Positions 1,781 to 18,234 of a stretch of DNA of 23,663 nucleotides are shown here, one piece after another. The translations under genes were made by a program, and so were the position numbers. This DNA is from Nitrospirota bacterium. Lineage in GTDB: Bacteria; Nitrospirota; Thermodesulfovibrionia; Thermodesulfovibrionales; Dissulfurispiraceae. The stretch is taken from the NCBI GenBank assembly GCA_040754455.1, contig JBFMCP010000041.1, positions 1-23,663 of the forward strand, read 5' to 3'. How positions within the stretch are numbered: position 1 is the stretch's first letter; each line of letters opens with the position of its first letter. The notes below the pieces were generated by a model. That model searched no databases. It had not been told where the DNA came from and saw nothing but the letters and a program-made list of their open reading frames with translations.

Positions 1781-1857
1781 AAATTCTAAATACAAAATCC
1801 TGAATCCTAAAAATGTACAGCCTTTTGTTTCGGGTTGAGAAAATGGGGTTGAGGGTC
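1781..1857. repeat. Degenerate heptamer array in the yajC-secD intergenic region
   Basis: AAATTCT AAATACA AAATCCT GAATCCT (1781-1808), then a looser G/T-rich arm in the same 7-nt phase: TTTTGTT TCGGGTT GAGAAAA TGGGGTT GAGGGTC (1823-1857). Confidence 0.6.
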
Positions 1858-1881
1858 TAAAAAAGGGAGGATAGTGTTGTA

Positions 1882-3507
1882 ATGAAAAAGGGGGTTTGGT
1901 GGAGAATAGCCCTGATCGCGGCAACGGTGGTTATTTCTCTCGTTTTCTTTTTGCCTAATCTGCCGCTCTTCCAGAGCATGCCGGAATGGTGGAAGAAGAG
2001 CATGCCTTCGAAGGGCATTGTCCTCGGGCTTGATCTCCAGGGCGGCCTGCATCTCGTCTTCGAGGTCGAAGGCGACAAGGCGGTCGAGATCGCGACCGAG
2101 AGAATCGCTTCCTCTCTGGGCGGCATGTTCGAGAGGAAAAAGATTCAGGCATCGGTAAAAAAAGACGGGCTGTCGGTGGTCGTATCGCCTGCGACGCCCG
2201 AGGTGCGAAAGGTGGTCGAGGAGACCTACCCGACGCTGGCATTGGTGGAAAGCGGCGGCAATGCGGTCAGATACCAGATGACGGCGAAGGAGCAGCAGCG
2301 GATCAAGGACACCGCTACCGATCAGGTCCTCGAGATCATCAGAAACAGGATCGACCAGTTCGGTGTCGCCGAGCCGATCATTCATCGCCAGGCGGGGAAT
2401 GAGATCGTTGTCCAGCTCCCTGGCGTAAAAGACCCCAAAAGGGCGGTCGAAATCATAGGCAAAACAGCACAGCTCGAATTCAAGATCGTTGATGATGAGT
2501 CACCTGTTGCCGCAGAGCTGCCCGCCTCGATTCTCCCCGGCGAGGAGCAGCAGCTCATCGAGCGCTTCAAAGAAAAGATCCCCGAGAACGATGAAATACA
2601 GTTCCAGAGGGTAGAGAATAAAGAGACCGGCTTGGTGACCAAACGGCCGATCCTTCTCAAGAAGGAAGCGCTCCTCACCGGCGACCTGCTCTCCGAGGCG
2701 CGCGTCAATATCGACCAGCGGTTCAATGAGCCTCAGGTTTCCATCACGTTCAATAGTGCCGGTGCAAAGATTTTCGAGGAAGTAACGGCGCAGAACGTAA
2801 AGAAACGCCTCGCCATTATCCTTGACAACAACGTCTACTCGGCACCGGTAATACAGGAGCGAATCAGTGGCGGGAATGCGCAGATTACCGGCAGCTTCAC
2901 CATGGAAGAGGCAAAGGACCTCGCTATCGTGCTGAGGGCGGGTGCTCTGCCTGCACCGTTAAAGACGCTCCAGAACGTAACCGTCGGGCCCTCCCTCGGA
3001 AGGGACTCTATCCAGGCAGGCACCATGGCCGGCATCATCGGCACCGTCCTCGTCGTCGCCTTCATGATTGTCTACTATAAGCTCTCCGGCGCTATCGCAG
3101 ATTTCGCTCTGGTGCTGAACGTCATTCTGCTGATCGGCGCAATGGCATCGCTCAATGCTACTCTTACACTGCCGGGAATCGCGGGCATTATCCTTACGAT
3201 CGGCATGGCGGTCGACTCCAATGTCCTCATGTTCGAGCGTATGCGGGAGGAATTGCGGGGGGGCAAGACACCAAAGGCTGCGATCGACAGTGGCTATAAA
3301 AAGGCATTCTGGACCATCTTTGACTCCCATGTCACGACGCTGCTCACTGCAGCGGTACTGTTCCAGTTCGGTACAGGGCCGATCAAGGGCTTTGCCGTCA
3401 CCCTGATGCTCGGCGTCGCGATCAATCTTTTCACCGCGCTGATAGGGACCAAGACAGTCTTTGACGTCATGTATTCCAAAAAGGAAGTTCAGGGGTTGAG
3501 CATATGA
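1882..3507 (+). CDS. secD: Protein translocase subunit SecD
   Basis: [56 protein letters not shown] motifs. Confidence 0.99.
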
Positions 3508-4439
3508 TGGAATTAATCAAAAATCCGGATATAGACTTTATGGGCAAGAGGAAGTTTGCCCTTGCCTTTTCCGCTATCGTAGCGCTGATCGGCATCTTCG
3601 CCATTATCCAGATAGGCCTCGGCAACGCCAACCTGGGCGTCGATTTTGCGGGCGGCACCGCGGTGCAGATCAAGTTCGCCCAGTCCGTTCCTCTCCATGA
3701 GGTACGTGTGGCATTGGAGCAGGGTGGCCTCAGGGACTTCGATCTCCAGGACCTCCCCACGGAGAACAAGGTCCTCATAAGAGTAAAAAAGCAGGAAGAA
3801 AAGCTCGGTGGTGCAGCGGAAAAAATCACCCAGATCCTCTCTGAACGGTTTGGCGACAAGAGGCCGGTGATCGATTCAACGACGGAGATCGGACCGAAGG
3901 TGGGTTCCCGGCTCAGGCAGGATGCCCTCTGGGCGATCCTTGTTGCAACCGCCGGTATATTGGTGTACATTGCGTGGCGGTTCCAGTTCAGGTTTGGTGT
4001 CGGCGCGACCGTAGCGACCTTCCACGATGTCCTCGCCGTGCTCGCCGTCTTCTATATCTTCGGCAAAGAGATGAACCTTATCCTTCTGAGTGCGCTGCTT
4101 ACCATAGCCGGTTACTCGCTCACCGATACGGTCGTCGTATTCGACCGGATCAGGGAGAATATGAAGCGTTTTGCCAACTCCAAAGAGCCGGTAGAGAGCA
4201 TTATCAACAAGAGCATCAACGAAGTGCTCTCAAGGACCATTGTCACCTCGTTAACCGTCTTCCTTACCGCACTTGCGCTCTTCTTTTTCGGTGGGGAGGT
4301 GCTCCACGACTTCGCCCTTGCAATGCTGATAGGCCTTGTTGTCGGCACCTACTCTTCGGTTTTTGTAGCGAGTCCTGTGGTGCTACTGCTCCGCGGCAAG
4401 GGCAGCAGACGGCCTGCAGCAGCAGCCACGAACAGATAA
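3504..4439 (+). CDS. secF: Protein translocase subunit SecF
   Basis: [47 protein letters not shown] overlap with secD. Confidence 0.99.
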
Positions 4440-4466
4440 GCCTGCAATGAGGCATCAATCGAGCAC

Positions 4467-4508
4467 CCGGCCGGTTGGCGGATACCCGCAGCCGGCCGGA
4501 TTTTGATT
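4467..4508 (+). terminator. GC-rich hairpin after secF (possible intrinsic terminator or attenuator)
   Basis: CCGGCCGGTTGGCGG-ATAC-CCGCAGCCGGCCGG followed by ATTTTGATT. Confidence 0.5.
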
Positions 4509-6281
4509 ATGGCGCGCAATGGTTCGATAGGCAGGTGGCTGGTCAACAGGACCAACCCTGAATATATCGACTATTTTTCACGAGTCTCATCGGTCTCGCC
4601 CATCTGTGCACAGGTCCTGGTCAACAGGGGAGTAAAGACGCCTGAGCAACTTACCGCCTTTCTCAATCCCGATCCAGGGAAATTGTCCGACCCCTTTGAT
4701 CTGCCCGGCCTCAAGAGGGCAGTCGAACGCATTAAAGAGGCGCGGCAGCGCGGCGAGCGCGTGCTTATCCACGGCGATTATGATGCCGACGGCGTTTCGG
4801 CAACGGCCATTATGGTCGAAGCGCTCCGCACCCTCGGCATCGATGTCCACTACTTCATTCCCCACCGGCTCAATCACGGCTACGGCTTCGGTATGCCGGG
4901 CATCGAAAAGGCAAAAGAGCTCGGAGCGAAGCTCATTATTACCGTTGATTGCGGTATTACCTCCTTTGAGGCGGTGGCGCTTGCCAATGCCTCGGGGATG
5001 GAGGTGATCATCACCGACCACCACGAACCGGTACGACGGAATTCGGAAGTCAGCCAACAAAGCATAGAAAACAGAATACAAGCTCCTGAAGACGGAGTGC
5101 AGAAGGCAGATATAGTTCTGCCGGAGGCATTTGCGATTGTCAATCCAAAGATCAGTGATGCACTGTCAGGCAGTGCGCATCTTTCCGGTGCCGGGGTTGC
5201 CTTCAAAATCGTCCAGGGGCTCTTCGGCAATGAGAGCGACATCGTTTATAAAGTGCTGGATATTGCGGCGCTGGGAACCGGCGCCGATGTGGTCCCGGTG
5301 CTCGATGATAACAGGATCATTCTCAAAGAGGGCATCAAGCTGGTCCAGTCGGGAGAGCGGATCGGCATCAAGGCGTTGAAGGAGGCAGCGGGCATACGTC
5401 CCGAGTTCTTCAGGACCTCATTGCTCTACTATGTGCTGGTGCCGAGGATCAATGCTGCCGGCAGGATTGCCGATGCAACGGATGTCGTGAGACTTTTGAC
5501 AACCCATTCAGAGGGGGAGGCCGAGACACTGGCCCGATGGCTGCACGGATTGAATGCAAAGCGGCAGGAGATCGAGGAAGCAGTATTCCAGGAAGCACTG
5601 CAGATGCTGGAGAAAGCGGACGCCCGGGGGCCCATTGTCCTCGCCTCTGCGGGATGGCATCTCGGCGTCGTAGGCATTGTTGCCGCGCGGCTTGCCGAGC
5701 GGTTCTACAGGCCGTCCGTGGTGCTTTCCATTGAGAACGGGATCGCCAAAGGCTCGGCCCGGAGCATACCTGCCTTTGACCTGCATTCCGGTCTCGCCCA
5801 GTGCGGGGAACTGCTGAAGCGGTTCGGAGGCCACAAGCAGGCTGCAGGCCTGGCGCTCCCTACGGAGAATATTGAACAGCTGAGAGCGATGCTCTCCCGC
5901 GTGGTCGACAACACACTCTCAGAAGATGATTTTTTCCCTGTCCTGAATATCGATGCAGCCGTGAACATTGCCGACATCAGCGTCGAGCTTATTGACGAGC
6001 TTGCGCGGCTCGAGCCCTTCGGTTATGGCAATGACGAACCGCTTCTCGGCGCAAGGGGCCTGGAGGTGATACAGCCGAAAATCGTCGGGAAAAATCACCT
6101 TAAAATGCGCCTGCGGCAGGGTGGCCGCCGTGTGGACAGTATCGGCTTTGATTTCGGCGACCTGCTGCCGCTCGTCGAAGAGAATTCTCACATTGATGCC
6201 GCATTTGTCCCCGCCATCAACGAGTGGGACGGCGGACGTTTCATACAGCTGAATTTGAAGGCAATAAGACCAACGCAGTAA
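4509..6281 (+). CDS. recJ: Single-stranded-DNA-specific exonuclease RecJ (with an in-frame insertion of about 25 aa)
   Basis: GDYDADG, TVDCG, TDHH, PRINAAGR, GSARS, FGGHKQAAG, EPFGYGN. Start is uncertain (TTG 4503 or ATG 4509). Confidence 0.98.
   Translation: MARNGSIGRWLVNRTNPEYIDYFSRVSSVSPICAQVLVNRGVKTPEQLTAFLNPDPGKLSDPFDLPGLKRAVERIKEARQRGERVLIHGDYDADGVSATAIMVEALRTLGIDVHYFIPHRLNHGYGFGMPGIEKAKELGAKLIITVDCGITSFEAVALANASGMEVIITDHHEPVRRNSEVSQQSIENRIQAPEDGVQKADIVLPEAFAIVNPKISDALSGSAHLSGAGVAFKIVQGLFGNESDIVYKVLDIAALGTGADVVPVLDDNRIILKEGIKLVQSGERIGIKALKEAAGIRPEFFRTSLLYYVLVPRINAAGRIADATDVVRLLTTHSEGEAETLARWLHGLNAKRQEIEEAVFQEALQMLEKADARGPIVLASAGWHLGVVGIVAARLAERFYRPSVVLSIENGIAKGSARSIPAFDLHSGLAQCGELLKRFGGHKQAAGLALPTENIEQLRAMLSRVVDNTLSEDDFFPVLNIDAAVNIADISVELIDELARLEPFGYGNDEPLLGARGLEVIQPKIVGKNHLKMRLRQGGRRVDSIGFDFGDLLPLVEENSHIDAAFVPAINEWDGGRFIQLNLKAIRPTQ
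5037..5113 (+). repeat. In-frame heptamer array inside recJ
   Basis: CGGAATT CGGAAGT CAGCCAA CAAAGCA TAGAAAA CAGAATA CAAGCTC CTGAAGA CGGAGTG CAGAAGG CAGATAT: 11 units, consensus about CAGAAnn. Confidence 0.75.
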
Positions 6282-6477
6282 ACAAAGAGCATACAGTGTT
6301 TACACACTCCTTAATTCATCAAAGTGGGCTAATGCAGAAACGGGTGCTCCAAGAAGTTGCCTCTACCAGCCTCTGCGTGATTTCCAGAGCAACGCACAAA
6401 TGTGTAAGCCTGACGACATCGCTCCAATTTTGATCTGGTTTGTGCCATAATACCATAGCTTTGTACGAGAGGTTGTC

Positions 6478-7278
6478 ATGAACGGAAAGCTGACGGTCCA
6501 GGATGTGCTGAAAAAGAAGCAGGACAAGCAGAAGATCACCATGATCACTGCGTACGACTACCCTTTTGCGCAGATTGCCGATGAGGCGGGAGTCGAAATA
6601 ATCCTCGTCGGCGATTCACTCGCCATGGTGGTGCAGGGACTCGATAATACTCTGCCGGTGACCATGGACGAGATGGTCTACCATACGAGGATGGTCTCGC
6701 GGGCCGTTAAAAGGGCGCTGGTAGTCGGCGATATGCCTTACCTTTCCTATCAGGTGAGCATCGAAGAAGCGGTCAGGAACGCGGGCAGGTTCCTCAAGGA
6801 GGGCGGTGCCCAGGCAGTGAAGCTCGAAGGCGGAAGAGAAGTGGTTCCACAGGTCGAGGCATTGGCGAAGGCCGAGATCCCCGTGGTTGCGCATATCGGG
6901 CTTACTCCGCAGGCGATCCACCGGGTGGGAGGCTACAAGGTGCAGGGCAAGACCGAGGAGGCTGCAAAGCGGCTCGTGGAGGATGCAAAGATGCTCGAGA
7001 GCGCAGGCGCCTTCTCGCTGATCCTCGAAGCGATTCCCGCGGACCTCGCCGGACAGATCACCGGGGATCTGAGCATCCCGACGATCGGCATCGGCGGCGG
7101 GCCGCAGTGCGACGGCCAGGTGCTGGTGCTCCATGACGTGCTCGGATTGTTCGACCGTTTCGTGCCCAAGTTTGTCAAAAAATATGCGAATCTTAAGAAA
7201 GAGGCGCTTTCGGCGATAAGACAATATAAAGAGGACGTCGAAAAGGGGATTTTCCCCGGAAAAGAGCATTCGTTCTAG
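6478..7278 (+). CDS. panB: 3-methyl-2-oxobutanoate hydroxymethyltransferase
   Basis: ITMITAYD, LVGDSL, VKLEGG, HIGLTPQ, TIGIG, DGQVLVLHD. Confidence 0.99.
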   Translation: MNGKLTVQDVLKKKQDKQKITMITAYDYPFAQIADEAGVEIILVGDSLAMVVQGLDNTLPVTMDEMVYHTRMVSRAVKRALVVGDMPYLSYQVSIEEAVRNAGRFLKEGGAQAVKLEGGREVVPQVEALAKAEIPVVAHIGLTPQAIHRVGGYKVQGKTEEAAKRLVEDAKMLESAGAFSLILEAIPADLAGQITGDLSIPTIGIGGGPQCDGQVLVLHDVLGLFDRFVPKFVKKYANLKKEALSAIRQYKEDVEKGIFPGKEHSF

Positions 7279-7288
7279 AGGGAGATAC

Positions 7289-7714
7289 ATGTCAAAGAAG
7301 TCGATACTGGTATGCGTCAAGAAAGACCTCGTCCATCCTATCAGCTACGCCTTAAGGACATTTGAGGGCAAAGTGGCTATCCGCTACCTGGACAATACGC
7401 GCCAGCTCGGGATGGTACTGGGTGATGTGGATAACTGCTGCACCGTAATCCTCGATTCGATCATCGGTGATGCCTCTACCCTCGACTTCGCTAGAGAGAT
7501 AAAAAACGACAAGCCTGACCTGAAAATACTCCTCGTTGTTTCTTCGGGGACGACAAAGGAAGAGATTGTGAACCTCATCCAATCAAAGGTCGTGAGCGGC
7601 GTGCTCATGAGGCCCTTTACCGCCGACCAGTTGAGCGATAACATCTACAAACTCTGCGGATTCCAGAAGCCGACGGATGTGCCGTGGTACATGAAGACGG
7701 GCCTGAAACCGTAA
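7289..7714 (+). CDS. Atypical receiver-domain protein
   Basis: The pattern (ILVCV, VILDS, PDLKILLVVS, GVLMRPF) resembles a REC fold, but the acidic pocket and KP lysine are altered. GAGGGAG RBS. Confidence 0.7.
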   Translation: MSKKSILVCVKKDLVHPISYALRTFEGKVAIRYLDNTRQLGMVLGDVDNCCTVILDSIIGDASTLDFAREIKNDKPDLKILLVVSSGTTKEEIVNLIQSKVVSGVLMRPFTADQLSDNIYKLCGFQKPTDVPWYMKTGLKP

Positions 7715-7732
7715 GATAATTCCTGCCAGGAG

Positions 7733-8975: not shown

Positions 8976-10009
8976 TTATGCAGCCCCTCTCTTCTCAGGT
9001 CTCAGGAACAGGAGATCGTATACGATGATGAGCACGCCGATGAAAAAGAAGACGCCTATAAACAATGTCACTCCCATCCATGTCCTCAAAAGATGCCAGC
9101 GCCGAGGAAATGGAAGACTGCACCGCCGATCGCCAACGTCCAGGTAAGGGGATTCCTGATCTCTTGTTTACGCTCTTTGACATGTTTCATCGTATCGATC
9201 ACCATCAGGAGGATCGGCAGCGGCTCGAGGGCTGAAAAGATGCCGCCGAACCAGAGCCAGTATTTCGGTGCGCCGATCCAGTAATAGTGGTGTCCGGTGC
9301 CGGTGATGCCGGTAAAGAGGAAGAGACCTAATTCGACATAGAGCCATTTCTCCACAACGTGGCGCTCCACGCCGGTCAGTCTCAGCAGAATGAAGGCGAT
9401 GATCGCCGCAGTGACCAGCTCCCACGCCCCCTCGACCCAGAGGTGGACGACCCACCACCAGTAGTACCAATCGATCACTTCGTTTTTATAAAAGGGGATG
9501 CCGAAGAGATAAAGGAGCGCAAGGAAGGTGAGCCCGCCGAGGAGCGTCCCCTGAATGGCGGTCCAGCGCTTCGCCTTGAACATGGTTGCACCGACATTGA
9601 AGAGGAAGATGAGCGCTCCGATGACGACGATGAAATCGAGGGGCCGTGGAATCTCGAGGAGCGGGCGGCCCTGCGTCCATCCGAAAAGAAAGCCTATCAG
9701 CGCGATAACGCCGGTTGCAACCAACGCAACCAGCTGTATCAACGCAAGCTTTGGAGAAAATATTTCCCTCCCCGTTTCTTCCGGGGTGATGTAATAGGTG
9801 CCGCCCATGAAGCCGAGAATCATCCAGAGCACCAGGAGGTTGGTATGCATGGCGCGGGCGGTGGAGAAAGGGAACGCATCGACGATCCACTGAGGGACGG
9901 TAAAGGTATAATTGACCGCCAGCCACAGCCCCAGCATGACCTGCAGCACAAAGAGGAGCAGGGCGACTCTGAAATACCAGTGGGCAATTCTCTGTGATTG
10001 ATAGTGCAT
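8976..10009 (-). pseudogene. norB: Nitric oxide reductase large subunit with internal deletion and frameshift
   Basis: The 307-aa ORF (10009-9086) has HTNLLVLW, WWWVVHLWVEGAWE, GTGHHYYWIG and SALEPLP, then stops after FHFLGAGIF. A different frame (9089-8976) encodes LRTWMGVTLFIGVFFFIGVLIIVYDLLFLRPEKRGAA*, which resembles the last NorB helix. The helices between them, including HxH, are absent. Confidence 0.85.
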
Positions 10010-10865: not shown

Positions 10866-11948
10866 TTAATGAATGCTTAAAGAATCGGCGAGGGTCTTAT
10901 GCGTAATCTCACCATGAAAGGTGTTCAGGGCGCTTCTGAGGGGTGAGTCCTCTCTGACTGCCCAATCGATGCCGTTCTTCGCGAGCATTCTTACATAGGG
11001 GAACGTGGCGTTGGTCAGCGCCAGGGTCGATGTCCGCGGATAGGCGCCGGGCATATTGGCGACGGTGTAATGAATAATACCATCAACCTCATAAACGGGG
11101 TTATCGTGAGTCGTGGGGCGCGAGGTCTCGACGCATCCGCCCTGATCGATGGAGACATCGACGATCACCGATCCCTTTTTCATGGTCCTGAGCATTTCCC
11201 TGGTAATTAAGACCGGCGCTCTCCCTCCGGGGATCAGCACCGCGCCGATAATGACATCGGCACTCTTGATTTCCTCTCTGATGACATACGGCTCTGAAGG
11301 CAGAGTGCTTATCATTCCCCGGTGTAGTTCGTCCAGTCTCTGCAGACGCTCGGTCCCTCTGTTGATTACCGTTGTGCTCATACCGAGACCGATACTTACC
11401 CGTGCTGCGTTGCTCCCAACGACGCCTGCGCCGAGGATTACCGCCTTCGCTGGTTTCACACCGACCGTGCCGGTAGGCAGGATACCGTTACCGCCGCGAA
11501 ACTTCTGGAGGTAGTAGGCGCCCATGAGCGGCGCCATCCTCCCAGCGATTTCGCTCATCGGGGCGAGCAGCGGCAAAATGCCGTCTTTCGCGAGGGTCTC
11601 GTAGGCAAAAGCGGTGACATTCTTCTTGAGGAGCAGATCGATGAGGGGGCGGTTGGGCGCAAGATGGAGATAGGTGAAGATCGCCTGTCCCCCTCTGATG
11701 AGATCGAACTCTTCAGGCAGGGGCTCTTTCACTTTCACGATAAGCTCTGCGCTGCCGAACACCGTTCCCCGGTCCGTTATAGACGCTCCCGCTGCTGCGT
11801 ATTCCTCATTCGAAAATCCACTGCCTTCTCCTGCTGCAGTTTCGATTAGGACGGTGTGGCCCTCTTCCCTCAGCTCTCCGACACCCGAAGGGGTGATGCT
11901 GACCCTGTATTCCTCTTTCTTGATCTCTTTCGGGACGCCGATGATCAT
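10866..11948 (-). CDS. ald: Alanine dehydrogenase
   Basis: MIIGVPKEIK, KVKEP, FTYLHLA, LLAPMSEIAGR, GAGVVG, DVSIDQGG, VANMPGAYPRTSTLAL. ATG at 11948 follows AAGGAG. Confidence 0.98.
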   Translation of the reverse strand: MIIGVPKEIKKEEYRVSITPSGVGELREEGHTVLIETAAGEGSGFSNEEYAAAGASITDRGTVFGSAELIVKVKEPLPEEFDLIRGGQAIFTYLHLAPNRPLIDLLLKKNVTAFAYETLAKDGILPLLAPMSEIAGRMAPLMGAYYLQKFRGGNGILPTGTVGVKPAKAVILGAGVVGSNAARVSIGLGMSTTVINRGTERLQRLDELHRGMISTLPSEPYVIREEIKSADVIIGAVLIPGGRAPVLITREMLRTMKKGSVIVDVSIDQGGCVETSRPTTHDNPVYEVDGIIHYTVANMPGAYPRTSTLALTNATFPYVRMLAKNGIDWAVREDSPLRSALNTFHGEITHKTLADSLSIH

Positions 11949-12016
11949 TGCGAGCTCCTTGATCAAATAGGATGTTTTTTCACTCACATATTAGCATAAA
12001 ACGGGGAGAAGAAAAA

Positions 12017-12076
12017 GGATCCAGAATCCAGATTTATTCAGACTCCTGACTCCTGGATTCTGGCTCCTGGCTTCTT
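12017..12076. repeat. Palindromic heptamer array in the ald/nnr divergent intergenic region
   Basis: Left GGATCCAGAATCCAG (12017-12031) pairs 14/15 with CTGGATTCTGGCTCC (12053-12067). The right arm reads TATTCAG ACTCCTG ACTCCTG GATTCTG GCTCCTG GCTTCTT. Confidence 0.8.
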
Positions 12077-12089
12077 CTTTTTCTGTTAA

Positions 12090-12139: not shown

Positions 12140-13681
12140 ATGAAAGTTGTTACCGCAGAGGAGATGAGAGAGATCGACCGCAGTACCATCGAGGGCTACG
12201 GGATTCCGGGCTCTGTCCTCATGGAGCGGGCGGGGCTTGCCGTTGCGTCAAGGGTACGTGCGCTCTCGCTCCCGAACAAGGTGCTTGTTCTCTGCGGCGG
12301 CGGCAACAATGGCGGCGATGGTCTGGTCGTTGCGCGTAACCTCTTCAACTGGGGATTCAATGTGAAGGTTCTGATGACCGCGAAAAGGGATTCGCTCAGC
12401 CCTGATTGCAGACAGCAATTTCAGATCGCAAAGGAAATCGGTCTGCCCATAGAATACCGCACGAAGCTGACAAGAGCGGATATTCACAGCGCAGTGGTCG
12501 TCGACGCAGTCTTTGGCACCGGGCTCAGCAGGCCGGTAAGGGGGGAGGTAGCCGGGATATTCGCCTTCCTCAATAACTCTGCAGCAACAGTCATCGCAGT
12601 GGATATACCCTCGGGCATCTCCTCTGACACGGGAGATGTCCTCGGGGAAGCGCTCATGGCTGATTATACGGTCACCTTCGGCCTACCCAAGCGTGGACAC
12701 CTGCTTGGGCCCGGCGCTGCCTATACAGGGAGGTTATTCGTTGAGGATATCGGATTTCCCTCAAAGCTGCTCACTGCGGATGCTCTCAAGGTCTCGCTGG
12801 TCAGCAGAGAGATGATCGCCCCGCTGCTCCCTCCCCGCCAGCGGGATGCGCACAAAGGAGATTTCGGACATATACTGGTGATTGCCGGGGCCAGGGGCAA
12901 GACCGGCGCTGCCCTGATGACGGCAAAGGCATGTCTCAGGAGCGGTGCAGGGCTTGTGACGCTTGCGGTGCCCGAGTCTCTCGCAGATGTTATCCAGGGC
13001 AGGGTTACTGAGGAGATGGTCCTGCCGCTCCCCGATGACGGCAGCGGTATGTTCTCATCAAGGGCGCTCGACGATATTTTCCCCTTTATTGAGAAGAGGG
13101 CGGACATTATTGCCATCGGTCCGGGTATCGGTGTATCAGAGGAGACTACGGCCATTATGACCGAGCTCGTCCAAAGATCGACGGTGCCGATGGTCATCGA
13201 TGCGGATGGACTGAATTCCCTCAGCGCATCGTTCAAAAGTGAGCACGAGGTGCAGGACGCCTTCAGGAGGGCGAAATCTCCGCTGGTCCTCACTCCCCAT
13301 CACGGTGAAATGGCACGGCTTGTCCATTGTTCCCTGAGCACGGACCGTATTGCAACAGCACTATCTTTCGCACAATCGACAGGGACCTGTCTTGTACTGA
13401 AGGGCGGCCCCACCATTACCGCCTCACCGGAAGGCGACGCCTTTATCAATCCGACAGGCAATCCCGGCATGGCCACGGGTGGATCGGGCGATGTGCTCAC
13501 CGGCATTATTGCCGCTTTGCTGGGGCAGAGCCTTAATCCGGTTAATGCCGCTGTCTACGGTGTCTATCTCCATGGACTCGCGGGCGACAAGGCTGCGGAG
13601 GTAAAAGGAGAACAGGCATTGATCGCTTCCGACATTATCGATGCGCTCCCCGGTGCCTTCAGGGAAATCATCAATGGGTGA
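12140..13681 (+). CDS. nnr: Bifunctional NAD(P)H-hydrate epimerase/dehydratase
   Basis: LMERAG, GGGNNGGDG, DAVFGTG and DIPSG (YjeF_N domain); HKGDFG, IGPGIG, IDADGL, LTPH.GE and MATGGSGDVLTG (kinase-fold domain). Confidence 0.98.
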   Translation: MKVVTAEEMREIDRSTIEGYGIPGSVLMERAGLAVASRVRALSLPNKVLVLCGGGNNGGDGLVVARNLFNWGFNVKVLMTAKRDSLSPDCRQQFQIAKEIGLPIEYRTKLTRADIHSAVVVDAVFGTGLSRPVRGEVAGIFAFLNNSAATVIAVDIPSGISSDTGDVLGEALMADYTVTFGLPKRGHLLGPGAAYTGRLFVEDIGFPSKLLTADALKVSLVSREMIAPLLPPRQRDAHKGDFGHILVIAGARGKTGAALMTAKACLRSGAGLVTLAVPESLADVIQGRVTEEMVLPLPDDGSGMFSSRALDDIFPFIEKRADIIAIGPGIGVSEETTAIMTELVQRSTVPMVIDADGLNSLSASFKSEHEVQDAFRRAKSPLVLTPHHGEMARLVHCSLSTDRIATALSFAQSTGTCLVLKGGPTITASPEGDAFINPTGNPGMATGGSGDVLTGIIAALLGQSLNPVNAAVYGVYLHGLAGDKAAEVKGEQALIASDIIDALPGAFREIING

Positions 13682-14357
13682 GCCGGTTGTTGTTCCTCCC
13701 CTCTTCCGTGGGCAGCATGTGCAGGGCTTTTTTACGACGAAGGCACTGAACGGCGATCCGAAGGCCCTTGCCGGATTCCTGAACATCGATGAGAGGGATA
13801 TCTATCTTCCCATCCAGAAGCATACGGACAAAATCGTGATTGTGGACCATGATATGGAAGCGAAGATCGCCGACGCGGTAATCACCGGCAGAAAGGGAAT
13901 TTTCATCGGCGTCCGGGTGGCCGATTGCGTCCCGATTCTTCTCTATGACCGGAAAAAGCGGATCTCCGGTGCTGTTCATGCCGGCTGGAGGGGAACAGCG
14001 GAAGAGATCCTGAAGAAGACGATAGCGCTTATGATGAGCAGGTTTTATTCATCGCCCGAAGATATCCTCATGGCGGTCGGTCCGAGCATAAAATGGTGCT
14101 GCTACGAGGTGGGCCATGAGGTGATCGAAGCGGTCGTCAAAGTGAACGGTGAGGGAGCATATTATAAAACAAAAGGCGAGAAGTATTGTATCGACCTGCC
14201 GAGTGCCAATTTGCAGCAGGCGCTTTCGCTCGGCATCCCCGCTGCAAATATCTGGATCTCTGATGAGTGCACCTTCTGCAAGCCGGACAGGTTCTATTCC
14301 TACCGCTTTGCGAAGGGGAGCACGGGGCGCCAGGGAGGCTTCATCGGAATTGTCTGA
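13674..14357 (+). CDS. pgeF: Peptidoglycan editing factor / purine nucleoside phosphorylase YfiH family
   Basis: QKH, VADCVPILL, HAGWRG, GPSI..CCYEVG, CTFC, FYSYR, GRQ. ATG at 13674 overlaps the end of nnr. Confidence 0.95.
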   Translation: MGEPVVVPPLFRGQHVQGFFTTKALNGDPKALAGFLNIDERDIYLPIQKHTDKIVIVDHDMEAKIADAVITGRKGIFIGVRVADCVPILLYDRKKRISGAVHAGWRGTAEEILKKTIALMMSRFYSSPEDILMAVGPSIKWCCYEVGHEVIEAVVKVNGEGAYYKTKGEKYCIDLPSANLQQALSLGIPAANIWISDECTFCKPDRFYSYRFAKGSTGRQGGFIGIV

Positions 14358-14401
14358 TACGGTATAATATCTTGATAAGAATGTCTGATAAAGGAGAGGC
14401 G

Positions 14402-14854
14402 ATGCTGAGGGCAAAAGATATAATGACAAAGGATGTGATTACTGTAACGCCGACAACCACGGTCGAGGATCTGGCGCGGATATTGACGGAGCACAAGATC
14501 AGCGGTGCCCCTGTTGTGAACGAGAACGGTGAGTTGATAGGCGTGGTGACCGAGACCGATCTCATCAGCCGCAACAAGCGGCTCCATATTCCGACGGTGA
14601 TGCGGCTCTTCGATGCCTATATCATGCTCGAAAGCCCCTCGAAGATAGAGCAGGAGATCAAAAAGATGGCCGCTGTTACGGTAAACGATATCTATACCCG
14701 CCATGTTATCACGGTGACCGAAGATACCACTATTGAGGATGTGGCGACGATTATGTCCGATAGGAAGGTGTATCTCCTTCCCGTTGTCGAGGGCAGAACA
14801 ATCAAGGGCATTATCGGGAAGATGGACCTGATCAAAGGAATCGGCAAAAAATAG
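14402..14854 (+). CDS. CBS domain pair protein
   Basis: AKDIMTKDVITV, ISGAPVV..GELIGVVTETDL, and a second CBS copy (LPVV..IKGIIGKMDL). AAGGAGAGG RBS; TATAAT at 14363-14368. Confidence 0.93.
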   Translation: MLRAKDIMTKDVITVTPTTTVEDLARILTEHKISGAPVVNENGELIGVVTETDLISRNKRLHIPTVMRLFDAYIMLESPSKIEQEIKKMAAVTVNDIYTRHVITVTEDTTIEDVATIMSDRKVYLLPVVEGRTIKGIIGKMDLIKGIGKK

Positions 14855-14859
14855 TCCTC

Positions 14860-14968
14860 TGTTCACCGTTTGCTGTTCATTGTTCATAGCGAGATTCCTT
14901 TGTCGATGAGCGGTCAACTATGAACTATGAACCATGAGCGGTGAACAGTGATCGGTGAGCTATGGACA
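14860..14968. repeat. Inverted heptamer arrays between the CBS gene and tsaE
   Basis: Left arm TGTTCAC CGTTTGC TGTTCAT TGTTCAT (14860-14887). Right arm ATGAGCG GTCAACT ATGAACT ATGAACC ATGAGCG GTGAACA GTGATCG GTGAGCT ATGGACA (14906-14968). Confidence 0.88.
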
Positions 14969-15444
14969 GAGGTGTCACGATCATCACCCGTTCCGCTGAA
15001 GAGACGGAGGCGGCGGGATTCGGGCTGGGAGATTATATCAAGGCGCACCGGGGAGCGGGCACGGTTGTTCTCTACGGAGACCTCGGCGCGGGCAAGACGA
15101 CCTTTATCAAAGGCATTGCCTCGGCCTTCGGGATCGCCGGGAGAGATATCGGGAGCGCCAGTTTCGTTATCGCTGCCGAATATGAGACGATGCCGCCCTT
15201 CTACCATATCGATCTCTACAGGATCGAAAACGAGGAAGACATCGAAGGCGCGGGCATATGGGAGTATATAGAATCGGGTGGTATCGCGGTCGTTGAATGG
15301 GCAGAACGGCTTCCGGAGATTCCCGAGGGCAGTATAAAGGTCAGTATCACTTATCGGGATGCGACCTCCCGGGAGATCAGCATCGAGGGAATTGAAGATC
15401 CGGCCTTCACAGAGGCCTTCGAGGAGCTCGGCAAAGAGAAATGA
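14962..15444 (+). CDS. tsaE: tRNA threonylcarbamoyladenosine biosynthesis ATPase TsaE
   Basis: GDLGAGKTTF Walker A, S.SF, YHIDLYR, VEWAE. Confidence 0.97.
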   Translation: MDRGVTIITRSAEETEAAGFGLGDYIKAHRGAGTVVLYGDLGAGKTTFIKGIASAFGIAGRDIGSASFVIAAEYETMPPFYHIDLYRIENEEDIEGAGIWEYIESGGIAVVEWAERLPEIPEGSIKVSITYRDATSREISIEGIEDPAFTEAFEELGKEK

Positions 15445-16292
15445 AAAAGATCGGCATCATCTGCAAAATGGGAAGGCCCGAGCCTGTGGAGATCCTGCGA
15501 GGATTCCTCCCGTGGCTCAACGAGAGGGGCTACGAGGTATTCCTCGAGTCGAGGACTGCCGATATGCTCGGCATGCAGGGGTATGCGAGCGAGCAGATTC
15601 CCGGTCTGGCTGATATGGTCATCGTGCTCGGAGGTGACGGCACCATGTTGGGTGTTGCCCGCATGGTCGGCGGCAGGGGGATCCCCATTCTCGGCATTAA
15701 TCTCGGCGGGCTCGGCTTTATTACCGAGATCGGACGTGATGAGATATTCAGCGCCGTAGAAAAGGTGCTTGCCGGCGACTGTTCCGTTGAGGAGAGGATT
15801 ATGCTCGCCGCCTTCGTCCACCGGCAGGAGCGGCAGATCGCCGATTTCGTCGTGCTGAATGATGTGGTCATCAATAAAGGGGCGCTGGCACGGATCATCG
15901 AGCTCGAGACCTATGTGAATAACTTCTATGTCAGCACCTTCAGGGCTGATGGTTTGATTGTCGCGACACCGACCGGCTCCACTGCCTATTCCCTTTCAGC
16001 AGGCGGACCGATCCTGTATCCTACGCTCAACAGCATCGTCATGACGCCTATCTGCCCCCATACGCTTACCAATCGACCGATCGTCCTTCCTGACGATTCC
16101 GTTATAGAGGTGATCATGCGGTCCGAGAGCGAGGATGTCCAGCTTACTCTGGACGGACAGGTGGGATTCTCTTTGCAGAAGGGCGATAAGGTCGCCATTA
16201 GAAAGTCGGGCTTTACTACGAAACTCCTCATTCCCCGCGAGCGCGACTACTTCCAGGTACTCAGGGAAAAGCTCAAGTGGGGTGGGCGGTAA
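15441..16292 (+). CDS. nadK: NAD kinase
   Basis: GGDGT, GINLGGLGF, LNDVV, ADGLIVATPTGSTAYSLSAGGP, PICPH, KLKWG. Confidence 0.99.
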   Translation: MKKIGIICKMGRPEPVEILRGFLPWLNERGYEVFLESRTADMLGMQGYASEQIPGLADMVIVLGGDGTMLGVARMVGGRGIPILGINLGGLGFITEIGRDEIFSAVEKVLAGDCSVEERIMLAAFVHRQERQIADFVVLNDVVINKGALARIIELETYVNNFYVSTFRADGLIVATPTGSTAYSLSAGGPILYPTLNSIVMTPICPHTLTNRPIVLPDDSVIEVIMRSESEDVQLTLDGQVGFSLQKGDKVAIRKSGFTTKLLIPRERDYFQVLREKLKWGGR

Positions 16293-17053
16293 TGATGACT
16301 AGGGAGATGAGGGAGAGTATTGCACAGGTTCTGGAATTTTACCGGGAACTCGGCTTCGAGCGCCTGCCGTTGAACATCCGTAATGCGGTACCCGTAACGC
16401 GTAATGAATTAAAAGAGGAAGACTCCTTTAACTCATCACTCATCACTTGTCACTCATCACCGGCCACGTGTCGCACAGTACGTGACAAAGAGGCCGCCCT
16501 CAAGGAGCTCCGTCAGGAGATCGGCGATTGCCAGCGCTGCAAGCTCGCAAAGGGAAGGACCAATCTCGTCTTCGGCGAGGGCAACAGCAATGCACGCATA
16601 CTGTTTATCGGTGAAGGGCCGGGCGCGGAGGAGGACCGGCAGGGCAGGCCCTTTGTGGGCGACGCCGGACAGCTTTTGACGAGGCTCATCGAGAAGATGG
16701 GACTGAAGAGAGCGGATGTGTATATAGCGAACATCGTAAAATGCAGACCGCCGATGAACCGCGACCCTCAGGACGACGAGATGTCGACCTGTTTCCCTTT
16801 CCTCGACCGCCAGATCGAGATCATTGCGCCGCAGGTGATCGTGGCCCTCGGAAAGATTTCAGCCTATACCCTGCTGGGTGTCGAAGGACCGATCAGCAAG
16901 TTCTCTATTATGCGTACGAGGGGGAAATTCTATGAGTATAAGGGCATCCCTCTGATGCCGACCTTTCATCCTGCTTACCTTCTGAGGAATCCGAAGGACA
17001 AATGGCTCACCTGGCAGGATGCGCAGGCAGTGCTGAGGAAAATTGAGGAATAG
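16292..17053 (+). CDS. Family 4 (Fe-S) uracil-DNA glycosylase
   Basis: CQRC, VFGEG, GEGPG..ED..GRPFVG, KCRPP.NR.P, HPAYLLR. ATG at 16292 overlaps the nadK stop (TAATG). Confidence 0.96.
   Translation: MMTREMRESIAQVLEFYRELGFERLPLNIRNAVPVTRNELKEEDSFNSSLITCHSSPATCRTVRDKEAALKELRQEIGDCQRCKLAKGRTNLVFGEGNSNARILFIGEGPGAEEDRQGRPFVGDAGQLLTRLIEKMGLKRADVYIANIVKCRPPMNRDPQDDEMSTCFPFLDRQIEIIAPQVIVALGKISAYTLLGVEGPISKFSIMRTRGKFYEYKGIPLMPTFHPAYLLRNPKDKWLTWQDAQAVLRKIEE
16379..16475. repeat. In-frame inverted heptamer arrays in the UDG N-terminal linker
   Basis: CGTAATG CGGTACC CGTAACG CGTAATG (16379-16406), a spacer, then TTTAACT CATCACT CATCACT TGTCACT CATCACC GGCCACG TGTCGCA (16427-16475). Confidence 0.82.
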
Positions 17054-17109
17054 CTTTTCTGTCTTTAATTCTTGACTATACTTCTTTCTGCCCTTTAAAC
17101 TAAAAAGCC

Positions 17110-17697
17110 ATGGAAAAGAAAGTACTCAAGGCATTCGAGGATAGTGTCCGCGTCAAGGAGCGATTCGCCAGAGAGAATCTCAGACTCATCATCGAGGTCT
17201 CGAAGCTGATTGCCGATGCGTTTAACGACGGGAAGAAACTCCTCCTCTTCGGCAATGGCGGCAGCGCCTGCGACGCCTCCCATATCGCCGCCGAGTTCGT
17301 TAACCGCTTTAAAAAGGACAGACCCGGCCTGCCCGCCATAGCGCTCAACACCGATACTGCGGTCCTAACCTCCATATCCAATGACTATGACTATGCTGAA
17401 ATCTTTGCCCGCCAGGTGAAGACGCTCGCCGATGCCGGCGATATCGTTATCGCCATAAGCACCAGCGGCGGCTCGAAGAACATCCTCAAGGCAGTGGACG
17501 TGGCAAAAAAAAAAGGCATGACAACCATCGCCTTCACCGGAACAAAAGGGGAGAAATTCGCCTCCAAATGCGATTATGCCTTTGTGGTTCCCACGGACGA
17601 TACCCCGCGCATTCAGGAAACCCACATCACCCTCGGCCATGTGATCTGCCAGATCGTCGAAGAGATACTCTTTGAGGCGCCGAGAAAAAAACAGTGA
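17110..17697 (+). CDS. gmhA: D-sedoheptulose 7-phosphate isomerase
   Basis: GNGGSACDASHIAAEFV, SNDY, ISTSG.S, TPRIQETHI..GH. Confidence 0.98.
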   Translation: MEKKVLKAFEDSVRVKERFARENLRLIIEVSKLIADAFNDGKKLLLFGNGGSACDASHIAAEFVNRFKKDRPGLPAIALNTDTAVLTSISNDYDYAEIFARQVKTLADAGDIVIAISTSGGSKNILKAVDVAKKKGMTTIAFTGTKGEKFASKCDYAFVVPTDDTPRIQETHITLGHVICQIVEEILFEAPRKKQ

Positions 17698-17715
17698 ACC
17701 CAGAATTCTGCCGTT

Positions 17716-18234
17716 ATGAAGCTGTTAGGTATTGACCCCGGAAGTTTCAACTGCGGGTACGGCCTTATTGAATGTCGTAACGCGTTGCGCGTCACGCGTC
17801 ACGCGTCATCGACATATCGATATCTTGCATCAGGCAGAATCGTCCTCCCCCCGAAAAAACTGCTCCACGAACGATTGAAAGAGCTGTATTCAGGACTTGT
17901 GGAAGTTATCGGCGAGTACCGGCCCGATGAGATCATCGTCGAGAAGATGTTCTTTGCCAAAGGGGTGAAGGCTGCTCTGAGTCTCGGGCATGCAAGAGGG
18001 GTTGTCCTCATTGCTGCATCCCTGACCAATCTCCCCCTCTTTGAATACAGCGCCTTGGAAGTGAAAAAAGCGGTTGTCGGTTACGGCAGGGCCGATAAAA
18101 ACCAGGTGCAGCATATGGTGAGAGAGATTCTAAAAATACCCCATCACCTCTCGCCGGACAGCGCCGATGCCCTGGCCCTGGCCCTCTGCCATGCACACAG
18201 CCGGCAGCTCACCGCACAGACAGGTAAGAGATAG
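17716..18234 (+). CDS. ruvC: Crossover junction endodeoxyribonuclease RuvC
   Basis: LGIDPG, VEKMFF, LGHARGV, VKKAVVGYGRADK.QV, DSADALALALCH. Confidence 0.98.
   Translation: MKLLGIDPGSFNCGYGLIECRNALRVTRHASSTYRYLASGRIVLPPKKLLHERLKELYSGLVEVIGEYRPDEIIVEKMFFAKGVKAALSLGHARGVVLIAASLTNLPLFEYSALEVKKAVVGYGRADKNQVQHMVREILKIPHHLSPDSADALALALCHAHSRQLTAQTGKR
17776..17810 (+). repeat. In-frame heptamer array inside ruvC
   Basis: CGTAACG CGTTGCG CGTCACG CGTCACG CGTCATC: 5 units. Confidence 0.85.

Follow-up and report, generated by a model that had tools for sequence, protein, structure and literature searches.

Heptanucleotide-built DNA elements between genes and in frame within genes of an uncultured Nitrospirota bacterium

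Six arrays of short tandem repeats, all with a period of 7 nt, lie in a 23.7-kb stretch of DNA (23,663 nt; the window) from one uncultured Nitrospirota genome, three of them within genes. Their unit sequences differ, which raises the question of whether they arose independently or belong to one family. An earlier note on this DNA favoured a common generating mechanism or a non-autonomous mobile element over independent slippage. All window-level counts given here are limited to this stretch.

The window carries short DNA elements made of 7-base repeats, both intergenic and in frame within genes (Table 1). Tandem Repeats Finder (TRF) returned period-7 rows at 12041-12075, 14916-14937, 16431-16460 and 17776-17808, and period-14 rows at 12046-12075 and 14906-14958. 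Identity at a lag of 7 nt reaches at least 20 of 35 positions at five places (1769-1823, 12014-12089, 14893-14973, 16418-16477 and 17761-17819). At the same level there are none for periods 4, 5, 8 and 10, and one each for periods 6, 11 and 13. When segments were scored against 100 dinucleotide shuffles, four period-7 segments exceeded the threshold of 10 (0.02 expected); at the remaining periods there were three for 14, one for 6 and none for 4, 5 and 8-13. Codon periodicity aside, local arrays occur in the window at period 7 only, with four segments against 0, 1 and 0 for periods 5, 6 and 8. Within ORFs, 35-nt windows were counted by lag-7 identity and compared with 300 codon-order shuffles. 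Two have at least 22 identical positions (0.00 expected; no shuffle reached two), and three have at least 19 (0.6 expected; 10 of the 300 shuffles reached three). The udg, ruvC and recJ arrays were not reproduced by codon-order shuffles, by lag identity or by column score. The arrays described in the earlier note are thus real by TRF, lag identity and both kinds of shuffle, that at 1781 being weak.

Table 1. Heptamer arrays and elements of the window (positions in the window).
Feature	Position	Strand	Units and layout	Location
Weak one-armed heptamer array	1781..1815	.	ATTCTAA / ATCCTGA / ATCCTAA type	yajC-secD spacer
In-frame array	5033..5117	+	~11-12 degenerate CAGAAnn units	recJ, ~residues 178-205, directly C-terminal of DHH motif
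Palindromic heptamer element	12005..12080	.	two inverted arms, MTYCTGR units	between divergent ald (-) and nnr (+)
Palindromic heptamer element	14857..14972	.	RTGAACN units, 14-nt higher-order repeat	between CBS-domain gene and tsaE
In-frame element	16379..16460	+	two arms + central hairpin	family-4 udg, N-terminal linker
udg element, arm 1	16379-16406	+	CGTAATG-type x4	
udg element, centre	16407-16430	+	small central hairpin	
udg element, arm 2	16431-16460	+	ACTCATC x4.3	
In-frame self-complementary array	17771..17812	+	CGTNACG x5, flanks ATGTCG / CGACAT	ruvC ~residues 19-33, beta2-beta3 hairpin loop

The earlier note had seen inverted arms in at least three arrays. These are clear at 12005-12080 (hairpin z -4.0 as DNA, and -4.4 and -5.4 as RNA for the two strands) and at 14857-14972 (z -4.5 as DNA, -4.1 as RNA), and moderate in ruvC at 17755-17830 (z -2.5). 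They are absent from recJ (DNA fold z -0.8), while in udg the two arms are merely degenerate inverted copies that fold poorly (z -0.5). The z-scores refer to DNA folding of the array regions and, for intergenic pairs, to RNA folding; the latter gave z between -3.7 and -5.5 in six of eight pairs. A pattern of three successive MTYCTGR units has five matches in the window (0.2 expected), all within 12014-12077 and in both arms. The element at 14857-14972 occupies the whole CBS-tsaE spacer, and at its right end it overlaps the start codon of tsaE (14962). The weak array at 1781 has a lag-7 identity of 20/35 and a DNA fold z of -2.9, but period 13 likewise scores 20 in the same A-rich spacer. Judged by eye, both the 1781 and the 5037 array (reverse strand) resemble degenerate MTYCTGR, and neither reaches the three-unit pattern. 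Neither of the two clean palindromes showed a target-site duplication on inspection by eye. Outside the heptamers the elements lack conserved termini, one tandem pair (in locus L052, below) excepted. Rfam gave no match, and none of the arrays has a terminator-like feature.

The arrays within recJ, family-4 udg and ruvC keep the reading frame, as originally described, and each lies inside a surface loop or linker that has no counterpart in solved structures. In RecJ, residues 176-204 are without equivalent in 8y30 and 5f54. The lag identity of this array is borderline (19/35), and its 11-unit column-conservation score of 0.662 is the highest among all ORFs (maximum 0.584 over 60 codon shuffles). 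The catalytic domain of UDG begins at residue 76, and the udg array (lag-7 identity up to 24/35) lies outside it, in a linker of 43 aa compared with 28-29 aa in the related loci L003, L005, L006 and L007. At the loop bearing the ruvC array (up to 25/35) the protein has nine residues more than E. coli RuvC (1hjr). Among 120 relatives for each protein, the loop or linker ranges over 10-48 aa in RecJ (110 sequences), 13-63 aa in UDG (116) and 9-43 aa in RuvC (115). With z-scores that ignore shared descent, 7-residue periodicity is 12.6 for UDG linkers and 6.8 for RecJ loops, and for RuvC the values are 1.7 (lag 7) and 2.9 (lag 8). These loops thus appear to be hypervariable across the clade with a 7-residue periodicity, strong in UDG and RecJ and weaker in RuvC.

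The sequences suggest that the arrays are related to one another and are not products of independent slippage, because the udg and ruvC arrays have a 10-mer in common and because the same element-encoded peptides occur in the UDG, RuvC and RecJ loops of relatives. The exact 10-mer CGTAACGCGT is found in both arrays, which are read in the same phase (RNAxxVTR); at no more than one mismatch it has six matches in the window, all in these two arrays (0.66 expected). In relatives' proteins NCSDELLVTSNELKDKKNKNSSL of a UDG linker matches NCSNELQVTSNKLKKEKNSLL of a RuvC loop, and VTSNEL motifs are present in RecJ loops. RVTRHAS is found in the window RuvC and in the UDG linker of another genome. The score for peptide pairs across the three proteins was reached by none of 500 composition-preserving shuffles in six of seven pairs, and by three of 500 in the seventh; these are similarities between short, low-complexity protein segments of relatives, compared at the level of protein. 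The consensus units of the four strongest arrays in the window are rather dissimilar, with pairwise distances of 2-4.

Orthologous loci of relatives include both filled and empty sites. The cbs-tsaE spacer is 107 nt in the window, at most 3 nt in L005-L007, and ~36 nt with no array in L001. A close strain whose UDG is ~97% identical (236 of 243 residues in the alignment) has exactly 30 nt (10 aa) of arm 2 missing. The empty allele still encodes SSP (TCATCACC-like), a possible local seed of the kind expected under pure slippage. The RecJ loops of relatives differ in 7-residue steps, e.g. from 16 to 23 aa (KAIGEYE to KAIGNGQEAIGEYE).

Arrays of this kind are unevenly distributed between lineages, with 16.9 per 100 kb in the window, 7.7 in 50 Omnitrophota-type loci, 1.3 in six Nitrospirota relatives and 0.5 in 24 loci of other phyla. 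In the Omnitrophota-type loci an inverted partner accompanies 15 of 21 intergenic arrays, compared with 4 of 39 genic arrays. The units there are closer within one genome than between genomes at the same site. Unit distance is 2.30 within a locus and 3.11 between loci, a difference reached by none of 5000 permutations; random heptamers from the same loci gave 3.20 and 3.23. Copies of (TAGCGTA)n-loop-(TACGCTA)n lie on either side of thrC in L056, and in L070 and L079 copies of the same palindromic element make up the spacer between yajC and secD. Two element copies of ~80 nt with conserved flanks stand in tandem in L052. The Omnitrophota genic arrays are located in FolP, ThrC, CimA and the Nnr dehydratase, so that the association with DNA repair noticed in the window looks coincidental. 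The Nnr dehydratase array is in a loop at the same position in 12 loci; the loop is 11-13 aa in short forms and 17-20 aa when it bears the array, a difference of ~7 aa. Together with the shared CGTAACGCGT, the shared peptides and the filled and empty sites, the within-genome likeness of units bears out the view that the arrays are related.

The reading we prefer, to which we give about an even chance, is that of a non-autonomous family resembling Rickettsia palindromic elements (RPEs) and MITEs, built from heptamers and also changing by slippage. The six arrays would form one family, specific to the lineage, whose members are small and non-coding, measure ~30-110 nt and are composed of heptanucleotide units, typically about four per arm. 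In most intergenic copies a short spacer would separate two inverted arms, allowing the DNA or its transcript to form a long hairpin with regular interruptions, which might in turn affect the mRNA. Genic copies would survive only in frame, free of stops and where a surface loop or linker can accommodate added residues. We infer two steps. A few unit families (MTYCTGR; RTGAACN; CGTNACG / ACTCATC) would be copied to new sites, in the manner of non-autonomous selfish DNA and probably by a factor encoded outside the window. Each copy would then change quickly in place, through slipped-strand gain and loss of units and through point mutation, giving the hypervariable loops of the relatives. Among the window ORFs (27 against NCBIfam, seven of these also against Pfam), none matched a transposase, reverse transcriptase, HUH or RAYT gene, in keeping with the earlier note. 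The link with four-helix-bundle genes that it raised is not supported, as none of 15 ORFs (seven of the window and eight small array-adjacent ORFs in the loci) matched a four-helix-bundle or GxxExxY family in the Pfam scan.

Slippage could instead be the whole explanation, each array having grown locally from a heptamer by a replication process favouring 7-nt units, with nothing moving and arrays kept where harmless. In many bacteria heptanucleotide repeats are described as outnumbering other long simple repeats, and polymerase slippage, with a footprint of the polymerase, has been proposed (quoted in PMC4679880 and PMC4692102). The 14-nt higher-order repeats together with the 7-residue loop steps count in favour of local slippage, as do the possible seed in the empty UDG allele and the Nnr loops, whose lengths fit one seed plus three added units. 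Yet the same units and peptides occur at unrelated sites, whole palindromic copies recur, and units are alike within a genome far beyond what composition predicts. The UDG indel of 30 nt is no whole number of units, and a universal property of polymerases leaves the ~30-fold lineage difference in density unexplained. We therefore regard slippage acting alone as doubtful. Chance, codon usage or assembly artefact is extremely improbable: the A-rich surroundings of the 1781 array and the borderline lag identity in recJ would suit it, but the arrays are not reproduced by dinucleotide or codon-order shuffles and the same RuvC, RecJ and UDG segments occur in independently assembled near-identical sequences. 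For five of the six arrays this reading lacks support.

Selection at defined positions is a further possibility, the arrays serving as sites for a heptamer-reading protein or as structured RNA (e.g. operon-internal hairpins), with a factor of genome-dependent specificity. This would account for genome-specific units, for the good folding of intergenic pairs and for orthologous positions occupied in many genomes (the Nnr loop, FolP, ThrC and the yajC-secD spacer), and regulator-binding roles have been proposed for similar arrays in G. metallireducens (PMC2700814), Nostoc and Beggiatoaceae (PMC4679880). We consider it unlikely, since sites in close relatives are empty without visible compensation, several unrelated unit families occur in one window, and genic copies occupy the protein segments under least constraint, as expected of tolerated rather than selected DNA. 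Nor is there an Rfam match, a terminator-like feature or a known candidate factor. The arrays could also be contingency loci, in which gain or loss of a 7-nt unit shifts the frame and toggles recJ, udg and ruvC into a reversible mutator state. All three genic arrays of the window are in DNA-repair genes, and the RuvC of one relative (P0248; 144 aa, on a 102-kb contig) is annotated only from within the loop, which could reflect a frameshift. However, the units are degenerate and imperfect, loop length is constant among sequences at 90% identity or above (four of RuvC, four of RecJ), the single strain-level length change is in frame, and the Omnitrophota genic arrays are in metabolic enzymes. 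Such switching is thus very improbable.

A mobile, heptamer-built family has partial counterparts among known systems. REP/REPIN sequences and MITEs are short, non-autonomous, palindromic intergenic hairpin repeats, often in inverted pairs and of genome-specific sequence, and REPs are not known to have a heptamer substructure. REP/REPINs are associated with RAYT, whereas neither RAYT nor a parent IS is present in the window, where inspection by eye also showed no target-site duplication and where the elements lack a GTAG or CGTC head. Dispersed heptamer arrays of cyanobacteria go by the name STRR. STRR, Nostoc and Xanthomonas GGGAATC arrays are described as dispersed and mostly intergenic, differing in length and sequence at the same sites between close relatives, and some Xanthomonas repeats form convergent inverted pairs (PMC4692102; bioRxiv 10.1101/2022.06.06.494920). 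Dispersal, placement and site-wise variation are shared with the window elements, and the STRR analogy drawn in the earlier note is apt. These systems, however, are dominated by a single unit or a few, commonly as long perfect runs, and in-frame copies in conserved enzymes are not a hallmark.

Marine Beggiatoaceae have genome-dispersed TAACTGA direct repeats in sets of 2-6 units, a few of them in ORFs at the protein periphery, for which horizontal spread was suspected with no evident mechanism (MacGregor 2015, PMC4679880). Short dispersed sets and peripheral copies in ORFs are features in common with the window. By contrast, the account in that paper is of a single unit, mostly direct and mostly directly upstream of start codons, with only one indirect repeat reported. 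In G. metallireducens, Aklujkar et al. (2009, PMC2700814) described elements of four tandem heptanucleotide repeats within and between genes (49 copies), and paired opposite-strand sites of five tandem heptamers with consensus MTYCTGA, and read the heptanucleotide elements as regulator or RNA elements. The paired sites share both unit and inverted-pair layout with the element at 12005-12080. Geobacter belongs to a different phylum, and its families have one consensus and many copies, unlike the window; the passages on these elements contain no description of protein-loop placement or of a filled and empty comparison, both of which are found here. The RPEs, also named in the earlier note, are a fitting comparison for the genic copies. 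They are palindromic, non-coding, in-frame inserts in unrelated housekeeping genes with no transposase known, and each family contributes a conserved peptide compatible with protein function (reviewed in PMC10969869), just as the same element peptide occurs in UDG, RuvC and RecJ of the window's relatives. RPEs as reviewed there are ~150 bp, with family-specific sequence and no 7-nt periodicity, whereas the window elements are 30-110 nt, built from heptamers and far more variable in length.

Chance is excluded as the source of five of the six 7-nt-period arrays in the 23.7-kb window; four of the six are found by the strict criterion (i.e. 16.9 per 100 kb). Tandem Repeats Finder gives period-7 rows at four places, two of which also give period-14 rows, and a sliding lag-7 identity of at least 20/35 is reached at five (see the table). 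The same identity is reached nowhere at periods 4, 5, 8 and 10, and at one place each for periods 6, 11 and 13. By segment score there are four segments at period 7 compared with 0.02 expected from dinucleotide shuffles, and none at periods 4, 5 and 8-13. Head-to-tail 7-nt tandem units are commoner than chance and than neighbouring periods. The arrays are genuine, as the earlier note had claimed, and dinucleotide shuffles fail to generate them. That note had also proposed shuffles that preserve codons. With the codons of each open reading frame (ORF) kept and their order alone shuffled, two scanning windows of at least 22/35 identity at lag 7 were observed in ORFs, compared with 0.00 in the shuffles (0 of 300). 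The recJ array has a lag-7 identity of 19/35, and ranks highest among all ORFs by an 11-unit column-conservation score (0.662; the maximum of 60 shuffles is 0.584). The sixth array, near 1781, is weak, lying in an A-rich spacer whose score at period 13 is just as high.

Positions of the arrays and of related features in the window and in fetched loci of other genomes (L numbers)
Sequence	Position	Feature	Lag-7 identity at least 20/35	Tandem Repeats Finder, period 7
Window	1781-1815	Array in yajC-secD spacer	1769-1823	
Window	5033-5117	recJ array		
Window	12005-12080	Element in ald-nnr spacer	12014-12089	12041-12075
Window	14857-14972	Element in cbs-tsaE spacer	14893-14973	14916-14937
Window	14906-14879 (-)	Promoter-like site inside cbs-tsaE element		
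Window	16379-16460	udg element	16418-16477	16431-16460
Window	17771-17812	ruvC array	17761-17819	17776-17808
Window	9086-10009 (-)	307-aa ORF		
L001	21385-21425	Array in nadK-udg spacer		
L056	10400-10456	Array in Nnr loop		
L066	2199-2252	Array in Nnr loop		
L056	6689-7930	Dihydropteroate synthase / threonine synthase array		
L056	15033-16109	Dihydropteroate synthase / threonine synthase array		
L041	2286-3524	Dihydropteroate synthase / threonine synthase array		
L038	15740-16852	Dihydropteroate synthase / threonine synthase array		
L074	6477-7715	Dihydropteroate synthase / threonine synthase array		
L070	18131-18177	Palindrome in yajC-secD spacer		
L079	15235-15310	Palindrome in yajC-secD spacer		
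L052	10940-11120	Two tandem palindromic elements		
L074	3500-3620	Placement similar to L052		
L063	2810-2866	Period 8 in Nnr loop		
L079	7243-7305	Period 8 in Nnr loop		

The inverted arms described in the earlier note are clear in some elements and not in others. The ald-nnr and cbs-tsaE elements are both clear imperfect palindromes, with z of -4.0 and -4.5 respectively as DNA, and -4.1 to -5.4 for their RNA folds. The ruvC array is self-complementary (fold z -2.5) because its unit CGTNACG nearly equals its own reverse complement. In the udg element a small central hairpin separates two arms that are degenerate inverted copies, and the fold is no better than that of shuffles (z -0.5); the recJ array is a direct array with no palindrome (z -0.8). 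There are no Rfam matches in the window. None of its four terminator-like sites lies at an array and one of its six promoter-like sites lies inside an element; both totals are at background level.

The arrays of the window are not independent of each other, judged from the sequences that they share. An exact 10-mer, CGTAACGCGT, is common to the udg and ruvC arrays; allowing up to one mismatch there are six matches, all within these two arrays, where 0.66 would be expected. The two arrays are in equal reading phase, encoding RNAVPVTRN and RNALRVTRH. MTYCTGR units form both arms of the ald-nnr element (five matches, 0.2 expected). The peptides of the elements also recur between the UDG, RuvC and RecJ proteins of relatives (P numbers). 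NELxVTSNEL followed by a lysine-rich spacer and SSL is found in a UDG linker (P0347), a RuvC loop (P0024) and two RecJ loops (P0123 and P0161), and the RVTRHAS motif of the window RuvC recurs in the UDG linker of another genome (P0372). In six of seven cross-protein peptide pairs none of 500 composition-preserving shuffles reached the observed score. Hand translation shows two further recurrent loop peptides to be direct readings of repeats: QSAVSSQ comes from (CAGTCAG)3, and HSNTPTLQ, which recurs in loops of both RuvC and RecJ, from an octamer array, (CACTCCAA)3. We note that octamer arrays occur alongside heptamers in the proteins P0017, P0023, P0031, P0140, P0186 and P0126, and that two Nnr loops of Omnitrophota have period 8.

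The recJ, udg and ruvC arrays are all in frame, in parts of the proteins that have no counterpart in solved structures, which bears out the in-frame placement given in the earlier note. Residues 176-204 of RecJ lie between two blocks aligned with 8y30 and 5f54, directly after the DHH motif. RuvC has nine residues more than the E. coli enzyme (1hjr) in the beta2-beta3 hairpin; the AlphaFold model (mean pLDDT 56) is too poor to use, and agrees with this placement in its secondary structure alone, with residues 22-32 in a loop. The UDG arrays are in the N-terminal linker, with the catalytic domain beginning at residue 76.

These regions are hypervariable. Among 120 close homologues of each protein, pattern matching gave a RuvC loop of 9-43 residues in 115, a RecJ loop of 10-48 residues in 110 and a UDG linker of 13-63 residues in 116. 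Outside the loops the homologues are 53-77% identical to the proteins of the window, with three near-identical exceptions (93-100%). The UDG linkers have 414 residue matches at lag 7 compared with 247 expected (z 12.6), and other lags show no signal; z is 6.8 at lag 7 for the RecJ loops, and the weak periodicity of the RuvC loops gives 1.7 at lag 7 and 2.9 at lag 8, all of these values ignoring shared descent. A periodicity of seven residues is what 21 nt (i.e. three heptamers) gives. The lengths of the RuvC loops modulo 7 form no clean series, including 9, 16 and 23 but also 13, 19 and 22. The annotation of one RuvC relative on a 102-kb contig (P0248) begins within the hypervariable loop (144 aa, starting MGCVPNFSKLQ); a frameshift or a misplaced start site inside an array may account for this. 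Five annotated RuvC relatives (P0005, P0007, P0032, P0042 and P0047) share an N-terminal extension, MSYARWWKRYSLK.REKD..., suggesting that gene callers read through conserved sequence lying upstream of ruvC.

In the gene scan the content of the window is housekeeping, comprising yajC-secD-secF, recJ, panB, rtcA, ald, nnr, pgeF, a CBS-domain gene, tsaE, nadK, family-4 udg, gmhA, ruvC and others. In a species-level collection the closest genomes are Nitrospirota MAGs that carry the labels Nitrospiraceae, Dissulfurispiraceae or Thermodesulfovibrio, with Nnr 51-64% identical to that of the window (BLAST segment identities). By exact sequence match, the RuvC of the window belongs to a cluster whose NCBI name is that of a Nitrospirota MAG protein. 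The order nnr-pgeF-(cbs)-tsaE-nadK-udg is common to the window and L003, L005, L006 and L007, and L001 keeps it up to nadK, at the end of the locus. The mechanically listed ORF starts at 11944-11987 and 16277-16292 are probably too far upstream. The profile match of ald begins at residue 14, with AAGGAG-ATG near 11946, and database UDGs near-identical to that of the window begin MMTREM at about 16292, overlapping the nadK stop. The 307-aa ORF adjoins a c-type cytochrome gene. Of the 436 positions in the cytochrome oxidase subunit I profile it matches 1-323 and no others, and it may represent a short or truncated form.

Comparison of orthologous sites, which the earlier note had suggested, reveals filled and empty sites. 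The cbs-tsaE spacer, 107 nt long in the window, measures at most 3 nt in L005-L007; in L001 it is about 36 nt long and array-free. One UDG, which outside a gap matches that of the window at 236 of 243 residues, is missing exactly 10 residues of arm 2, or 30 nt. In the near-identical set, loop length is unchanged in four of four RuvC and four of four RecJ sequences. At a neighbouring site rather than that of the window, the nadK-udg spacer of L001, the closest relative, carries a perfect (GTAAGAA)x8 array.

The match of their Nnr dehydratase to the query explains why most of the 80 fetched loci come from Omnitrophota-type bins. By the strict criterion there are 53 period-7 arrays in 691 kb of these, two in 379 kb of other phyla and one in 78 kb of Nitrospirota relatives, compared with four in the window. 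All 80 loci together contain 75 arrays at period 7, and 6, 28, 17 and 48 at periods 5, 6, 8 and 9 respectively. Classed by a crude, greedily approximated ORF map, 15 of 21 intergenic arrays are inverted pairs, which fold well, compared with 4 of 39 genic arrays. The genic arrays occupy fixed places in orthologues from many genomes, in Nnr dehydratase, dihydropteroate synthase and threonine synthase. The association with DNA repair suggested by the three genes of the window fails elsewhere, and specificity for repair was rejected as not general.

The Nnr loop GHLxxL...ILTPH contains an array of four or five heptamers in 12 loci (L028, L029, L039, L041, L049, L053, L056, L066, L069, L074, L075 and L078). 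Its unit varies by genome (CGCACAG, ACTCACT, CGAACGA, GCTATAC, TGTACGA, TCAATTG and others) and its length is near constant despite this; L030-L032, L035 and L036 have short array-free loops of 11-13 aa. In several Omnitrophota bins arrays lie at about 0.38 of the length of dihydropteroate synthase and 0.86 of that of threonine synthase, with units matching those at other sites of their own genome. The mean unit distance between different sites of one genome is 1.56 (nine same-genome pairs), compared with 2.83-3.13 for one site across genomes. With every pair taken together, the mean is 2.30 for units of one locus and 3.11 for units of different loci (0 of 5000 permutations), where random heptamers from those loci give 3.20 and 3.23. 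A (TAGCGTA)n-loop-(TACGCTA)n palindrome flanks thrC on both sides in L056, and such palindromes also occupy the yajC-secD spacers of L070 and L079, a spacer that carries a heptamer element in the window as well. L052 has two tandem palindromic heptamer elements of about 80 nt with conserved flanks, AACAAGCGGG ... CCCATAGCTCTT. These directly follow a tRNA-like sequence, and a similar placement is seen in L074.

We consider, with moderate confidence, that the arrays belong to a family of non-coding elements built of heptamers. Such elements would spread to permissive sites and, once placed, would change through slippage and mutation. Slippage acting purely in situ, with the arrays growing in place, would account for the bias to heptamers reported in the literature (as quoted in PMC4679880 and PMC4692102), for the 14-nt higher-order repeats and for the 7-residue steps among the loops of relatives, but it leaves unexplained the units and peptides common to unrelated sites, the genome-specific units and the 30-fold differences in density between lineages, and we regard it as a doubtful account. 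It is also unlikely that the arrays are functional elements (i.e. binding sites or RNA hairpins), a role that their conserved positions would favour and that the empty sites in close relatives and the several unit families within one window weaken. Phase variation of the repair genes is very improbable. A phase-variable contingency locus has near-perfect repeats whose unit number varies between close strains and shifts the frame, and the degenerate units, the equal lengths of the RuvC and RecJ loops and the in-frame UDG variant speak against it.

A further proposal is a trans-acting, genome-specific mechanism that writes or rewrites heptamer arrays at defined sites, conserved enzymes included, in at least two phyla (Nitrospirota and Omnitrophota). 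We think this rather improbable. In its favour, the same gene loop holds arrays of similar length and genome-specific unit in many genomes, and different genes within one genome have a common unit. Such writing could rest on templated synthesis, on directed gene conversion or on a co-evolving factor that binds the arrays. The earlier note saw no mobilising gene in the window, and this holds: none, including any transposase or RAYT (TnpA-REP) gene, was found among 27 window ORFs in NCBIfam, seven of which were also included in the Pfam scan. Its proposal that similar heptamer runs flank four-helix-bundle (TIGR02436-type) genes in other bacteria, and the suggested co-location with GxxExxY genes, gained no match in those 27 ORFs or in 15 ORFs searched in Pfam (the seven window ORFs and eight small ORFs adjoining arrays in the loci).

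As study material this lineage is unusually clean. One kind of small element lies in frame in RuvC, RecJ and UDG, proteins that are well understood and whose structures are solved; close strains differ in having or lacking one arm; and hundreds of relatives known from metagenomes allow orthologous sites to be compared. This makes it directly testable whether the arrays are mobile or expand where they lie, and what accounts for the period of 7. The elements make hypervariable loops, by which gene callers, alignments and the clustering of MAG proteins by identity can be misled; such loops could also act as strain markers.

Cyanobacteria, Xanthomonas, Geobacter and Beggiatoaceae have for decades been known to carry dispersed heptanucleotide repeats, whose origin is, to our knowledge, still without explanation. 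The window units MTYCTGR, RTGAACN, CGTNACG and ACTCATC presumably match none of the named cyanobacterial STRR units. REP/REPIN-RAYT systems are marked by a genomic RAYT gene and by REP heads of the GTAG or CGTC type. Like MITEs, the ald-nnr and cbs-tsaE elements have terminal inverted repeats; no target-site duplication was visible by eye at the ends of these two clean palindromes. Rickettsia palindromic elements insert in frame in unrelated housekeeping genes and add a family-specific peptide, both of which are seen here, but they are Rickettsia sequence families with palindromes of about 100-150 bp, whereas the genic elements of this Nitrospirota window are 42-85 nt and the recJ copy is non-palindromic. 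Literature searches returned no report of heptamer elements for Nitrospirota or Omnitrophota, although the one that ranks by term count could have missed a paper. Both analogies drawn in the earlier note are sustained. The arrays resemble the Rickettsia elements in their in-frame behaviour (PMC10969869), and the cyanobacterial and Xanthomonas (PMC4692102, 10.1101/2022.06.06.494920) and Beggiatoaceae (PMC4679880) repeats in their dispersed-heptamer habit. As described, no system compared joins heptamer arms, an inverted-pair layout and one element in frame in several conserved enzymes. The closest description is that of the heptamer elements of G. metallireducens (PMC2700814). There, elements of four heptamers are found in genes as well as in spacers, and five MTYCTGA units, the unit of the ald-nnr element, form inverted pairs. 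Both arms of 12014-12077 fit its class 3 paired sites (about five tandem MTYCTGA per strand, inverted), a fit to a descriptive class rather than to a family of proven homology.
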